Positions 58,720 to 64,000 of a stretch of 64,000 nt of DNA are shown piece by piece. Under the pieces are notes generated by a model, which had not been told where the DNA came from, searched no databases, and was given only the letters and a program-made list of their open reading frames with translations. A program made the position numbers and the translations under genes. The DNA lies in NCBI GenBank assembly GCA_965223425.1, contig OZ245003.1, positions 1,984,001-2,048,000 of the forward strand. Reading direction: 5' to 3'. The number at the start of each line of letters is the position of its first letter. Position 1 is the first letter of the stretch. Source of the DNA: Nitrosopumilus sp. GTDB lineage: Archaea; Thermoproteota; Nitrososphaeria; Nitrososphaerales; Nitrosopumilaceae.

Positions 58720-59140
58720 ACCATATGTGAATACAGAGAAAAGGAAATCAGACAGCATAAGAGATGAACCTAATTCCAGGATTCGCAGTCTGTCACCTCC
58801 AAAGAAACAGATTAGGGGCAAATTAAGCAACAGCATGTATGTGGGCATTGACCTGCACAAGAAACCTCTTCAAGTAGCAATAATGGACAATGACGGAAAG
58901 GTATTACAAAACAGCAATTGACAACACTCACCAGACAATCAAGAAACATTTTGCAAGCATACCGCCTTATGCCAGCATAGCCATGAATCCTCATCTGTCT
59001 GGTTGATACATGTCGATTTCTGACAGATACGCTTGGATACAAAAACCCTGTCAAACCCATACCTGACAAAGGCAATAGCTGCATCCAAGAAGAAGACAGA
59101 CAAGGTTGATGCCAAGATCCTTACAGCTCTGCTGAGGATG
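58720..59140 (+). pseudogene. Truncated IS110/IS1111-type element
   Basis: Same left end (TA)ACCATATGTGAA as 62250; MYVGIDLHKK..QVA and SNP...KKTDKVDA fragments with frameshifts. Confidence 0.8.
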
Positions 59141-59370
59141 GATCCGTGGAGCGAGCTCCTGCCAGATCACAGTACTGTTGCCAAGTTCATGCAGAAGATT
59201 CCAACTGCATGGCTTTGACATGGATGCAATGCATATGAACCACTTGGCGAGCTAGCCAGACATGTATGGAAAAGTGATTTGGGAAAAGCTGTTGTTATTG
59301 GTAGCAGTTTAGCATTACTCGGTTTAGCAATAATGAAAGCTAGAAATTAATCTGAAATCGATCACCATGA

Positions 59371-60336
59371 CTAAGTGTCTGGGCTGAAATATTTCCCTGC
59401 ATTGTATTCTTCTGCACACATTTCAAAAAGACGCAGGTATGACTTTTCATTATATTGCGAGTTTACAGTATTTAGATAATCAGTAATTTCTCTGTTCCTC
59501 TCTATGATGTTATTGAACAAATCCTTATGTGGCAGCATGTCAGATTTTGTGCAGTTGCATTGCTGGCAGGCCAATGTACAGTTGTACGGATCAGTTGAAA
59601 AAACATAGTTGAATGGTATGACATGATCCACATGTGGTCGCTGAAATTTTTGCTCACAATAAAAACATCTAGAGTCTTGCTGTTGATTCATCCAAAGCTG
59701 TATCTCCGCTTTCAAAGAAATCCTACTCTTTAGTTCATTGTCTATCTTGTTTGCAATTTGAGGAGTCATACGATTTAATTTTTCAAGATATTTTGCAAGC
59801 GAGCTGTTTATTCCTTTTTTTAAAAGTATCTTATGCGTATGCAGAAATTCAATAACATCTTCATCTAATGCTATTATTTTTGAATCGGTTTTTTTATAAA
59901 ATCCTTTCATATCTGTAAGCAGATGTACTAAAACCTCTGGCTTGATACTCTTAGTAATTACCTTTGCTCGAAATTGCTCCATTTTATCTGATGATAGTTC
60001 ATCTATGGTGGGTGGTTTTTTTTGAGGATCATGAATGCTTTTTATCAATCTGGTTATGTTTGCATCCTGCGGATCCTGGGACTGTCTGAGACGAAAACTA
60101 TACTCCATATCCCAATAATATTTTGCAAATCGAACAGCAACAAAATTTAGATCCACAAAAACTTTCCCGTCTTTGCGTTCAAGCCATTGATTGCCTACCA
60201 ATTTTTGTGCAGTTCTAGAATCATACAGATCTCCAATATCCAAAATGGCCCGTAAGAATACGGGTTTATACGTGCTGGCCATTCTTCCTTCCTTACTGAA
60301 GAATCGATTGAACATTTGTAGATAGTCTTTGGACAT
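59371..60336 (-). CDS. HNH endonuclease (McrA-like, candidate modification-dependent restriction)
   Basis: N-terminal STYKPVFLRAIL; C-terminal CFYC...HVDHVIP...N...CQQCNCTK. Confidence 0.85.
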   Translation of the reverse strand: MSKDYLQMFNRFFSKEGRMASTYKPVFLRAILDIGDLYDSRTAQKLVGNQWLERKDGKVFVDLNFVAVRFAKYYWDMEYSFRLRQSQDPQDANITRLIKSIHDPQKKPPTIDELSSDKMEQFRAKVITKSIKPEVLVHLLTDMKGFYKKTDSKIIALDEDVIEFLHTHKILLKKGINSSLAKYLEKLNRMTPQIANKIDNELKSRISLKAEIQLWMNQQQDSRCFYCEQKFQRPHVDHVIPFNYVFSTDPYNCTLACQQCNCTKSDMLPHKDLFNNIIERNREITDYLNTVNSQYNEKSYLRLFEMCAEEYNAGKYFSPDT

Positions 60337-60554
60337 TATAATCAAACATGGATCGTACAATAATAATATGATCTCATTCGGGATTCAGATTGTTTCATGA
60401 TGCCAGATTAGAATTCTAAAATTATTCGCACCACGTCCCAACAAAAATTCTAAGCAGCAAAAGTTACTTGACAAACACATATTCAAACCCAAAATTTCCA
60501 AGACAAGTTCTCATCTATTGGACAAATCCAAAGGTAACACGATGAAAATTTGGA

Positions 60555-60609
60555 AATAACTTCAGAGAGAATAACTTCAGAGAGAATAACTTCAGAGAGA
60601 ATAACTTCA
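60555..60609. repeat. Short 15-bp tandem repeat (about 3.6 copies)
   Basis: AATAACTTCAGAGAG x3 plus a partial unit. Confidence 0.85.
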
Positions 60610-60788
60610 ATAATTCAATAAGACAAAAATAGTTCAATGTCTAACTTTTTTATTTTATAATATGATAGAATCTGATGATTTGAAAATATTTGATAATCAG
60701 GCCCCCTTGATAATAGACTTTATGCATAATTGAATCATAAAAAATTTTTCCGAAAGATTTAGATCCATTTTGATCGCCGCAACAGGTA

Positions 60789-62089
60789 ATGGAATCTTCA
60801 GAACAGACTATACGCAGGCTGCAAAGGGAGCTCAAACAAAAGGACACAGCAATCAAGCAAAAGGACACAGCAATCAAGCAAAAGGACACAGCAATCAAGC
60901 AAAAGGACACAGCAATCAAGCAGAACAACAGAGCAATCAAGCAGAACAACAGAGCAATCAAGCAGAACAACAGAGCAATCAAGCAAAAGGACGCAGCAAT
61001 CAGCAGGCGCGAGAAGACGATTGGCCTGCTGCGCGAGCAGCTGCTGCTGCGCGAGGACAGCCTGTGGGCCGTTACAGATGCAGGCCGCTCTGATACGGAC
61101 ACGTCGCTGCTGCACAGCAGGGAGGTGATCCACGGCATACTGCACAACAGCGCAAAGCTTGCGGGAATTACCTCGTATGACCTTGACCAGTTTGACTACA
61201 TCTGCAACGACTTTGTGGTAGAGTCAAAGAGGCACAACAAAGACGCGCCGCTCTTTTCAGAGGACGAAACACCGGATCCCGGAAACCGCTGCCTGCCTGG
61301 CCGCAGGTCCGTCCTGCTGCTTGCGCTGTTCCGCAGGCGCTCAAACGTGACGCAGGATGCCCTGGGTGTGCTGTTTGATGTTGACCAGTCCACCGTGTGC
61401 AGGTACCTCAAGTTTGCAGATTCCGTGCTGGCAAAGATTCTGCCTACTGCAGACAGGATGGCCCGTCTGGTAAAAAGGGCCGAGACATCAGGGCAGCTAG
61501 AGCAGCTAATGCCGGACAGAACCATCATAATTGACGGCACCGAGGCGGTGCCAAGGCAGCGTCCGCAGGACAAGGATAAAAGAAAAAACACGTACTCTGG
61601 CAAAAAGAAGCGCTTTACGATTAACACCACCATAACAACAAACAGGGCAGGCCTGATACTTGCAGCAGGCAGGTCCTTTGAGGGCGGGACGCACGACCTT
61701 ACCATGATAAGAGAGGATCCGATAGACTGGCAGGTGGTCTAAATCCATGTACAAAAAGGACACGCCCGAAAAGGACAGGATACGGGTACTTGCAGACAAG
61801 GGGTACCAGGGATGCCAATCACTACACGGGAATAGCACTTGAGATGCCGGAAAAAAAGAGGCCGCGGACGGAGCTGACGCAGCAGCAAAAGGACTCGAAC
61901 AAAAGGATCAGCGCCAAGAGGGTAAAGGCGGGGCACGCCATCGGAAGAATAAAGCAGTGGGCGAGGATGACAGACCCGTATGACGGCACGGTAGAGGAGT
62001 TTCACGAGGAGCTGGCTGTGTGTACCGGCCTTGCAAACTTTCAACTGCTGTGGGATGCAAAGAAAAAGCGGCCGTCACTTGGTTATTGA
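60789..62089 (+). pseudogene. DDE_Tnp_4-like transposase (copy 2) with N-terminal heptad repeats, two frameshifts
   Basis: IIDGTE, YSGKKK, THD | ADKGYQG | KRVKAGHAIG; the third catalytic Glu is Gly in this copy. Confidence 0.82.
60834..61001 (+). repeat. 21-bp coding tandem repeat (KQKDTAI x4, KQNNRAI x3, KQKDAAI)
   Basis: Direct reading; copy 1 has one fewer KDTAI unit. Confidence 0.9.
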
Positions 62090-62355
62090 CGGCACAGCAC
62101 AGGGTGCATGAGGCACTGCAAGAGTGCGCACGGATTTCTAATTTCTGCGAATTTACAATGATCTTTTGCATCAAAATTAAATAATTTCCTGGACTGGCTT
62201 TGTGTGTCTTGGTAGTGTATGCTGCAGAAAAAATTTGACGGGTCAATTAACCATATGTGAAGGCTCGGAGAAAAGGAATTTTAGATGACACTGGCATCAA
62301 GTCCTTTAAAAAGAAAAAAACAAAGAAACAGATTACCCATGGTTCTGACAAGATC

Positions 62356-63345
62356 ATGTATGTTGGACTAGACGTACACAAGGAGACGATTCAAGTTGCA
62401 GTACTGGATGGCGGCGGGACACTGCAGTCCAACATGAAGATAAAGAACAATCATGCGGAGATCAGGAAAACATTTGCCATGATCCCAAGGGACTCAAAAT
62501 ACGTGCTGGAATCATCATCTGTCTGGTACGGCCTATACCGGTTTCTCACAGATACGCTGGGATTAAATGTAATCGTATCCAATCCGTTTAGCACCAAGGT
62601 AATTGCAACGTCGCTCAAAAAAACAGACAAGGTGGACGCGCAGGCGCTGGCAAATCTATTGAGAGGGGGCTACATTGCACAGTGCCACGTGCCCGACAAT
62701 GACATAGTAGAGCTAAGACACCTTGCAAGACACAGAAACAAACTGGTCAAGACAAGAACAGTCATGAAGAATTCCATACATGGGATACTCTTGCAAAACG
62801 GAATCAAGACAAAATCCGGCGGATTCGGATCCGGCCACGTAAGGGAATTGAGAAAACTGAGGAACTATCGCATAGATTCGTTCCTTGATTCCATAGCGTT
62901 TCTAGACGGGCAGATCTACAAAATGGATGTAAAAACCCGCCGGATAGTCAAAAGGGATCAGAACATCAGTCTGCTGACCACCGTTCCTGGAATAGGGTAT
63001 TATTCTGCGCTTGCAATATATTCGGAGATTGGCAATATCGAAAGATTTTCAGACTCACACAAACTGTGTGCATACGCGGGCATTGTTCCGTCCGTGAGAA
63101 ACTCTGCTGAGACGGTACACCACGGCAGGATAACAAAGAGGGGAAGCCGTATGCTGCGATGGATAGCAGTGGAGGCAATCCAGACCCATACAAGACACGC
63201 GCCTGACAGCGACATTACAAGATTCTACAACCGTCTTGCAAAAAAGAGAGGAAGATCAAAGGCAAAGGTTGCAGCGGCATCAAAGCTGATACGTGTAATA
63301 TATTGGATGCTAAAGGAGAAAAAAGAGTATGTTGCCCAAAAATAA
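62356..63345 (+). CDS. IS110-family DEDD recombinase/transposase
   Basis: VGLDVHK, VLESS, KTDKVDA, VPGIG, GIVPSVRNSA (catalytic Ser region), ITKRG...LR. Confidence 0.95.
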   Translation: MYVGLDVHKETIQVAVLDGGGTLQSNMKIKNNHAEIRKTFAMIPRDSKYVLESSSVWYGLYRFLTDTLGLNVIVSNPFSTKVIATSLKKTDKVDAQALANLLRGGYIAQCHVPDNDIVELRHLARHRNKLVKTRTVMKNSIHGILLQNGIKTKSGGFGSGHVRELRKLRNYRIDSFLDSIAFLDGQIYKMDVKTRRIVKRDQNISLLTTVPGIGYYSALAIYSEIGNIERFSDSHKLCAYAGIVPSVRNSAETVHHGRITKRGSRMLRWIAVEAIQTHTRHAPDSDITRFYNRLAKKRGRSKAKVAAASKLIRVIYWMLKEKKEYVAQK

Positions 63346-63349
63346 TTTA

Positions 63350-63480
63350 TCACGGTTAGAGTCTGTCTGCGTTTTATGCGTTGAGGTTACACCTCGGGCA
63401 ATTAACTGCGGTTCAATCTAACAAATGGATGAAGAATGGCACTGGGAGTAAGATCCCGAATGGATACTTGTCCGCTCATC
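63350..63480 (+). ncRNA. Predicted bridge RNA / seekRNA of the IS110 element
   Basis: Two stem-internal loop-hairpin units whose loops match the target flanks and the element's own end (see findings). Confidence 0.75.
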
Positions 63481-63578
63481 TTTTGGAATTTGGATCAACC
63501 CTAACGTGAGCCATTCAACACTGTGACAGTTTGCAAGGAATGTTTATAAAGAATTCACATGGATATGCATAAAGTCTA

Positions 63579-63829
63579 GTACACTCTTTAAAAATATTCA
63601 GGAAATAATCGACAAGTTAAAAAAAGATATCATGGTAGGCAAACGAATTAAATTCAAAACTATTCCCAAATACTACAAAAAGAGACATGGGATTGACAAT
63701 GCGTTTCATGTATATTTGCCAAAAGGCATGAGACTAGTCTATTCTATTACTATTTACAATGGTGAAAAGACTGCATTTCTAATGGAATTAGCGGATCATC
63801 ATGCTTATGAGAAAAGATTCAATTATTGA
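63579..63829 (+). pseudogene. RelE/ParE-like toxin, probably 5'-disrupted by the ISL2-like insertion
   Basis: Frame is open from the IS boundary: TLFKNIQEIIDKLKKD.....IPKYY...LPKGMRLVYSI...DHHAYEKRFNY. Confidence 0.5.
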
Positions 63830-63888
63830 TACATAAATGTACATACATATAAATATCATTTGTCTGCATAAGCAGTTGGGAATCACGC

Positions 63889-64000
63889 ATGGCTAAATCA
63901 ATGACTGTTTTGGATTATATTTTGGAGAAAAGTAAAAAATACAATCCTACACTGAGAAGTTTTATTCAGGTCGAAAAATTAGTATTTGAGACTAAAGAAT
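63889..64000 (+). CDS. Hypothetical protein, partial (runs off window)
   Basis: MAKSMTVLDYILEKSKKYNPTLRSFIQVEKLVFETKE; TATA-like TATAAATA upstream. Confidence 0.5.
   Translation, partial: MAKSMTVLDYILEKSKKYNPTLRSFIQVEKLVFETKE

Follow-up and report, generated by a model that had tools for sequence, protein, structure and literature searches.

Positions 63355-63473 of the analysed window (the whole stretch of DNA under study, 64,000 nt long) very probably encode the bridge (seek) RNA of a thaumarchaeal IS1111-type insertion sequence of the IS110 family, a reading to which we assign a probability of about 0.9. This 3' non-coding end of the element comprises two modules of like build, in each of which a stem and an internal loop lead to a hairpin with a closing U.G pair. 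The corresponding 3' non-coding ends of relatives in Nitrosopumilaceae have a common scaffold and are hypervariable exactly at the proposed target guides. At the sequence level, the first internal loop (loop 1) follows the flanking target and the second (loop 2) follows the ends of the element.

The element and its insertion site

The element lies within the terminal repeat of another insertion sequence (IS), with the following features in the window and in the genome.

60714..62249, + strand: host element, an IS5-like IS (DDE_Tnp_4), its right terminal repeat split by the insertion
62250..63565, + strand: IS110-family element with IS1111-type layout, 1316 bp, junctions set by uninterrupted host-IS ends
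62250..62355, + strand: left end, 105 nt, beginning ACCATATGTGAA and carrying one subterminal inverted repeat arm at 62255-61, from the sequence and a repeat search (7 nt, 100%)
62356..63345, + strand: recombinase gene, 329 aa from ATG (MYVGLDVHK...), within the open reading frame 62257-63345
63554..63565, + strand: right end, closing ...TTCACATGGATA, with the other subterminal inverted repeat arm at 63554-60
63566..63578, + strand: final 13 bp (TGCATAAAGTCTA) of the terminal repeat of the host IS, forming the right target half
C1:2046227-2047578, C1:323132-324481 and C1:2067353-2068703: the three element copies

The three copies in the genome are 99% identical and every one of them is inserted at TCAATTA|TGCATAAAG, inside the terminal repeat of the IS5-like element; the identity between copies extends beyond the element on both sides because all three share one kind of site. 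Fourteen of the 19 uninterrupted host-IS ends examined read ...GGGTCAATTA|TGCATAAAGTCT.. over the insertion point, and the other five were variants (CGCATA in two, CGTATA in one, ACCATA in one and a 2-base loss in one). Since these ends run across the insertion point, the insert is 62250-63565. Together, the three copies and the 19 uninterrupted ends fix the junctions and the shared TA, and the target and element ends that the earlier note had proposed proved to be true. A TA stands at both junctions (62248-49 in the target and 63564-65 in the right end), as expected of a shared core dinucleotide; the element opens with ACCATATGTGAA and closes with TTCACATGGATA. Copies B and C are inserted in the opposite terminal repeat of the host element and have TGATTCAATTA as their left flank. 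We also counted unoccupied 16-bp target sites in the genome and found 31 that were exact and 44 with at most one mismatch, the exact ones being in ends of another IS.

The subterminal inverted repeats pair 62255-61 with 63554-60 perfectly over 7 nt, with an additional CCAT/ATGG at a 2-nt offset. Both arms were present in 21 of 21 relatives, a count that is not independent because the search pattern required both arms, and the left-end start was likewise kept in all 21 distinct relatives tabulated, such a start having been demanded by the search pattern.

One host-IS end, at C1:31590-31742, reads CAATTA-ACCATA-AAGTCTA in place of CAATTA-TGCATA-AAGTCTA; ACCATA is the same as the first six bases of the left end of the element and may be the footprint of an imprecise loss. 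Solo right-end fragments were found at C1:66866-66916 (51 nt, 100%) and C1:2260253-2260287 (35 nt, 94%), with the right target half still attached. Contigs of four DNA runs cover the element and, compared over 61900-63900, showed neither a circle joint nor an empty site, although contigs hide rare forms. An apparent joint of 62248 to 63547 with 10 letters between was rejected as an excision product, as it is the solo right-end fragment at C1:2260253-2260287.

The transposase of the host IS5-like element (60789-62089) is in two reading frames (60789-61742 and 61790-62089), and its N-terminal part contains tandem 21-nt repeats coding KQKDTAI / KQNNRAI. Immediately left of the host IS, a 15-nt unit (AGAGAATAACTTCAG) is repeated in tandem at 60556-60612 of the window. 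Farther left, between the host IS and a relic sibling element described below, a 329-aa open reading frame at 59371-60360 (- strand) contains an HNH endonuclease domain (PF01844, E = 2.9e-7).

Recombinase and host

The recombinase belongs to the IS110 family. Its gene is intact with a likely start at the ATG at 62356, and the protein matched Pfam domains PF01548 (DEDD_Tnp_IS110, N-terminal) with 85.7 bits and PF02371 (Transposase_20, C-terminal) with 79.1 bits, as well as NCBIfam NF033542, 'IS110 family RNA-guided transposase', with 241.6 bits against a cut-off of 140. The D, E, D and D residues and the C-terminal Ser align with those of ISCro4 and IS621, and the motifs GLDVH, LESS, KTDKVDA and RNSAE line up with their IS621 / ISCro4 counterparts, with A, not G, following the Ser.

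The 36 closest transposase loci were all from Nitrosopumilaceae, Nitrosopumilus, Cenarchaeum or Thaumarchaeota records, at 45-59% identity, and a full-length archaeal SSU rRNA match of 1460 bits was found in the genome, in line with the archaeal host claimed earlier. Next after the thaumarchaeal loci came recombinases of Archaeoglobales at 38-40% identity. A plasmid search for named relatives gave a Haloarcula plasmid as the best match (37%); the named IS matches on plasmids (ISLin1, ISEc45, IS5708, IS4321 and ISRel9) were at 20-28%, too distant for placement other than by a tree, with 19.8% identity to an IS4321-type plasmid gene.

Predicted structure of the guide RNA

The two modules and the motifs downstream of them were placed as follows.

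63355..63422, + strand: module 1, predicted target-binding loop, from sequence and covariation
63355-60 with 63417-22, + strand: stem P1 of module 1, GTTAGA with TCTAAC
63367-71 with 63406-11, + strand: stem P2 of module 1
63372-82, + strand: loop 1 5' strand, complementary to the top strand right of the insertion point
63383-95, + strand: hairpin 1 of module 1, GAGG / TTACA / CCTC
63396-405, + strand: loop 1 3' strand, left-target sense and complementary to the bottom strand, TA core at 63403-04
63427..63473, + strand: module 2, predicted donor-binding loop, from sequence and covariation
63427-31 with 63469-73, + strand: stem P4 of module 2, GGAUG with UGUCC
63432-43, + strand: loop 2 5' strand, ATGG(C) complementary to the left end
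63444-57, + strand: hairpin 2 of module 2, GGGA / GTAAGA / TCCC
63458-68, + strand: loop 2 3' strand, containing ATGGATA, identical to the right end
63499..63516, + strand: conserved box (family consensus about CTAGCG..GCYAT) between the RNA modules and a TATA-like box, alignment columns about 199-215
63543..63550, + strand: TATA-like box TTTATAAA, outward-facing and at a fixed distance to the right end, from relatives

The outer stem of module 1 and both hairpins had been read from the sequence in the earlier note and are present at these positions. Stem P2 goes beyond its list and narrows loop 1 to about 9+8 nt, and both strands of the loop extend to the TA core. The right-target guide claimed at 63373-81, TTTATGCGT, is reverse-complementary to ATGCATAAA (63565-73) apart from a single G opposite T, and is fully complementary to the variant site ACGCATAAA, a sequence present at the right junction of copy C and in two of the uninterrupted host ends. 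The left-target guide claimed at 63396-404, GGGCAATTA, matches GGTCAATTA (62241-49) at eight of nine positions as had been stated; in copies B and C, the left guide and the left target have only six contiguous bases in common, core included.

In module 2, the ATGGATA at 63460-66 is identical to the right end at 63559-65 and the ATGG at 63437-40 is complementary to CCAT at 62251-54, both as claimed; the left-end guide of this element matches at four of five positions. The two strands of loop 2 together read the RE-TA-LE joint of an excised circle, the 5' strand reading the start of the left end (LE) and the 3' strand the close of the right end (RE). The longer stem that the earlier note had drawn for this unit (63427-34 with 63467-73) was conserved in its outer five pairs, but its inner pairs were unsupported. 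Across the relatives, the unconserved pairs were the two inner ones first drawn for P2 and two to three of the three inner P4 pairs.

The conserved box at 63499-63516 could pair with the left-end guide of loop 2 in this element. The 5' half of the module-2 stem (63427-63434) can alternatively pair with 63475-63480, just 3' of its usual partner, which may represent an alternative conformation; judged by eye, this pairing seems to track the changes in relatives (GGAC/GTCC, AACGAA/TTCGTT), and RNAalifold favours the first pairing. An Rfam scan of 61500-64000 at E<=10 gave no match in 63350-63480 and two chance-level matches elsewhere (E = 3.8 and 5.2).

Covariation of the stems in relatives

Folding and covariation with homologues had been suggested as a check in the earlier note, and the covariation part bore it out, with the stems covarying in relatives, but single-sequence folding did not: the fold energy of the right end (63346-63566) was no better than that of shuffles (z = -0.67; 47 of 200 at least as stable), and the single-sequence minimum free energy structure pairs the two modules otherwise than the conserved structure does. 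A covariance model built from 22 relatives and searched over 83 sources gave 46 matches at E<=1, 41 of them at E below 1e-11, with one match in the window. In an alignment of 36 distinct rows, which leans towards the proposed structure because it was fitted to it, 83.2% of the pair cells were standard pairs versus 73.4% in column shuffles (0/500 reached the observed value) and 34-45% in controls with slid partners, and changes on both sides were found in 20 of the 30 pairs. A separate MAFFT alignment of 19 longer sequences was evaluated with RNAalifold, which recovered P1, P2, P4 and the module-2 hairpin with 20 pairs, 10 of them compensatory.

The module-1 hairpin was missed by RNAalifold, was 72% paired in the fitted alignment, and shifts its register between subgroups. 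In a fixed register, four of the four stem pairs were formed in 9 of the 23 distinct hairpins and three of the four in another 9, and the remaining 5 look register-shifted by eye. The U.G closing pair of module 2 was present in 35 of 35 rows. The region thus has the build of a bridge RNA, a structured RNA with internal loops between conserved stems and compensatory changes in P1, P2, P4 and both hairpins.

Contigs of another sample diverge from the window at 63403 and 63435, having the scaffold between the modules in common and different loop sequences; these are one more variant of the guides, from a related organism. Weak model matches (22-29 bits) were also found at the Archaeoglobales loci L067-L072, beside recombinases of 38-40% identity, where the loop-2 3' strand GGATGGGAGT matches the right end ACATGGGAG; given these matches and the agreement of loop and end, this type of RNA seems to extend past Thaumarchaeota.

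Agreement of the loop strands with targets and element ends

We compared the loop 1 strands, taken from the alignment, with the flanks of ends located by conserved motifs for 23 distinct guide pairs, leaving out 23 rows (13 duplicate guide pairs and 10 without a recognisable end). The 3' strand matched its own left flank at 4.00 of the seven non-core positions versus 1.80 for the flanks of others, and the reverse complement of the 5' strand matched its own right flank at 5.04 of eight positions versus 3.19, with 0 of 20000 permutations reaching the own score in either case. The element of this genome (copy B) scored low because its right junction is without two bases. The guide reading the top strand came first in all 23 guide pairs. 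A one-base guide difference between two close relatives was mirrored in the flank (GGTTA vs GGATA), and in one public genome two subfamilies that differ in nearly nothing except loop 1 occupy different sites.

The loop 2 strands were compared with the element ends in 21 distinct sets. The 3' strand matched the final nine-base stretch of the right end at 7.10 positions, and loop 2 had the same G/A difference as the right end (ATGGATA or ATAGATA) in all 21 sets. The reverse complement of the 5' strand matched the left-end 5-mer at five of five positions in 13 of the 21 sets and at four of five in 8, including 5/5 matches to each of the left-end variants ATCAT, ACCGT and ACTAT. None of the 20000 permutations reached the own score for either strand, and this covariation rests on few changes because the ends vary little.

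Behind the right end, relative L040 (2523-2900) has part of a second copy that begins inside the DNA coding for loop 2, and relative L057 (2480-2800) has a tandem repeat of the last ~55 nt. These duplications suggest recombination of the right end with look-alike internal sites.

Sibling families in the same genome

The covariance model matched nine other places in the genome, six of which are identical RNAs beside a recombinase 50% identical to the one described here.

C1:1159864-1160025, 1203815-1203976, 1501623-1501784, 1502055-1502216(-), 1804242-1804403(-) and 2374755-2374916: RNAs of the sibling family (L114-L119)

In this sibling family, loop 1 is distinct and the hairpin inserts are longer. 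The 5' strand of its loop 1 is complementary to CGAGTTCA, and its right ends are followed by CGAGTTCAC, TGAGTTCAC or CGTGTTCAG, while the short left guide ends in TGTA and the left flanks end in TGTA or AGTA. As targets, the family uses the ends of a palindromic element about 100 bp long. Siblings in the same genome having different loops and different targets, the guides appear from their sequences to have been naturally retargeted. The earlier description of a compact, reprogrammable recombinase system stands as far as the IS110-family recombinase and the covarying RNA are concerned, but the word reprogrammable refers here to natural variation only.

Two sibling copies face each other over one palindromic element of ~100 bp (C1:1501785-1502054). 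A truncated sibling element was also found in the window at 58720-59215, starting with the left-end sequence ACCATATGTGAA after GGTTCTGGTA; its recombinase frame is decayed (MYVGIDLHK..., KKTDKVDA) and the RNA region is gone.

Alternative explanations

Matches of 4 to 9 nt are common and the folding z-score was not significant, as would be the case if the resemblance had arisen by chance in an ordinary 3' untranslated end. The permutation tests on loop 1 and on loop 2 (0/20000 each) and the covariance model matches, with 41 related loci at E below 1e-11, refute this account, the probability of which we regard as negligible. The matches might also act as DNA rather than RNA, as internal copies of the ends and the target to which protein binds or which are hot spots of recombination. 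The right end and the DNA coding for the loop-2 3' strand do have seven bases in common, and the partial or repeated copies after the right end in L040 and L057 could reflect DNA-level recombination between repeats; however, the stems between and around the matches keep their pairing by compensatory changes, a signature of RNA structure, and each loop has one sense and one antisense guide like the solved bridge RNA complexes, which makes a role as DNA very improbable.

The division of labour between the two modules could differ from the one proposed here, in that module 1 is the only working seekRNA, module 2 serves as a scaffold or is removed by processing from a long precursor, and the protein reads the ends through the subterminal inverted repeats. 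The ends vary little here, and a seekRNA of 70-100 nt sufficed for ISEc11, with the role of the long form left open in the available sections of Siddiquee et al. (PMC11187229); since a short seekRNA is sufficient there, it is from covariation only that a role for module 2 is deduced. Nevertheless, loop 2 follows the few end variants that exist (the G/A difference in 21/21 sets, and ATCAT, ACCGT and ACTAT all matched, at 0/20000 permutations), and module 2 is built like module 1, with the U.G closing pair included in 35/35 rows. We accordingly consider a function of module 1 by itself unlikely and retain a bridge RNA with a target-binding and a donor-binding loop as the preferred reading.

Proposed mechanism and promoter

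By analogy with IS621 and ISEc11, the 329-aa DEDD/Ser recombinase would bind the RNA, which would hold the circle joint and the target (TCAATTA|TGCATAAAG) side by side, with loop 2 on the RE-TA-LE joint and loop 1 on the target, and strand exchange would take place at the TA common to both. The recombinase transcript probably supplies the RNA as its 3' tail and would start at the TATA box of the right end, a box that would face the left end only in the circle. The pairing patterns that enter this model are read directly from the sequences, and the binding, transcription and catalysis are modelled on the bacterial systems.

Of 21 distinct relatives, 20 have a TATA-like word that begins 23 nt ahead of the right end, and the 21st has CATATAAAG at that place. 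We infer that this box drives transcription that crosses the RE-LE circle joint and reads through the recombinase gene to the RNA, and that it would be the archaeal counterpart of bacterial junction promoters. It is a tentative and rather doubtful proposal that these elements form a native archaeal family of RNA-guided recombinases, characterized by a ~120-nt RNA, a TA core, a long right and a short left target guide, a circle-only TATA-box promoter, and a conserved 3' box plus an alternative module-2 pairing that might switch RNA forms.

Significance

The mechanism is already known from bacteria, so the element is a well-supported new example rather than a new system, and it leaves the known mechanism unchanged. 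Right-end bridge/seek RNAs of the IS1111 group are in print (available sections of PMC11187229 and PMC11208160), archaeal IS110 recombinases have been catalogued as a group (n=662; available text of bioRxiv 10.1101/2024.06.21.599552), and the NCBI family name already calls the protein RNA-guided (NF033542). Literature searches on seekRNA, bridge RNA and archaeal or thaumarchaeal IS110 elements turned up no account of this element or of any thaumarchaeal bridge RNA; archaeal elements may be among those tabulated in the supplements of Durrant et al. and Siddiquee et al. Bench proof of RNA-guided (bridge/seek RNA) transposition has so far come from bacteria only, and the comparative evidence extends it to ammonia-oxidising archaea. 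Two sibling families with different targets in one genome provide a natural series of retargeted guides that is open to direct testing, and the at least 23 naturally retargeted guide pairs could, if the doubtful proposal of a native archaeal family holds, supply a programmable insertion tool that is ready for use in archaea. By inactivating or marking the ends of a second family of transposons, the element bears on the competition between mobile elements in small archaeal genomes; if that proposal holds, it may be a natural brake on other transposons by disrupting their ends.

Comparison with known systems

Assignment to the IS1111 group is supported by the layout, the inverted repeats and the order of the guides, rather than by a recombinase tree. 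The right end (220 nt, 63346-63565) is longer than the left end (105 nt, 62250-62355), the subterminal inverted repeats fall within the 7-17 bp of the group (here 7 nt perfect), and the segment complementary to the top strand (63373-81) lies 5' of that complementary to the bottom strand (63396-404). In the IS1111 seekRNAs of ISEc11, ISKpn4, ISPa11 and ISPst6, as described in the available sections of Siddiquee et al. (2024, PMC11187229), the segment that pairs with the top strand likewise comes first and the RNA is downstream of the gene. The fit to IS1111 that the earlier note had pointed out, with a downstream RNA and the right guide before the left one, agrees with this published order, which is the reverse of that given for IS621 in the available sections of PMC11208160.

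As far as the same sections of Siddiquee et al. go, the element is also like the IS1111 group in its DEDD recombinase of about 330-350 aa, the long non-coding region 3' of the gene, the subterminal inverted repeats, the order of the guide segments and their overlap at the insertion point, the natural re-programming among relatives, and a promoter, putative here, that is formed only in the circle. It differs from the group in its archaeal host, a predicted TATA-like box in place of -35/-10 halves, a Ser motif of SA instead of SG or TG, and a short repeat (7 perfect + 4 bp, 2-nt offset), and it is known here from its sequence alone.

With IS621 / ISCro4 (available sections of Durrant et al. 2024, PMC11208160; PDB 8wt6, 9t56), the element has in common a target and a donor internal loop, one guide per DNA strand in each loop with the shared core dinucleotide included, and a recombinase with both Pfam domains and with matching DEDD and Ser residues. 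According to the same sources, it differs from them in that the RNA is in the right end and not the left, the guide order is reversed with the 5' side reading the top strand here, the long guide is the right one, and the core is TA versus CT; the proteins resemble each other weakly (E = 1e-8, with the best match in the C-terminal domain). Like a published IS110-family element, it inserts in one orientation into the terminal repeat of a different transposable element, but its host element is, unlike in that case, an IS5-like IS of an archaeon.
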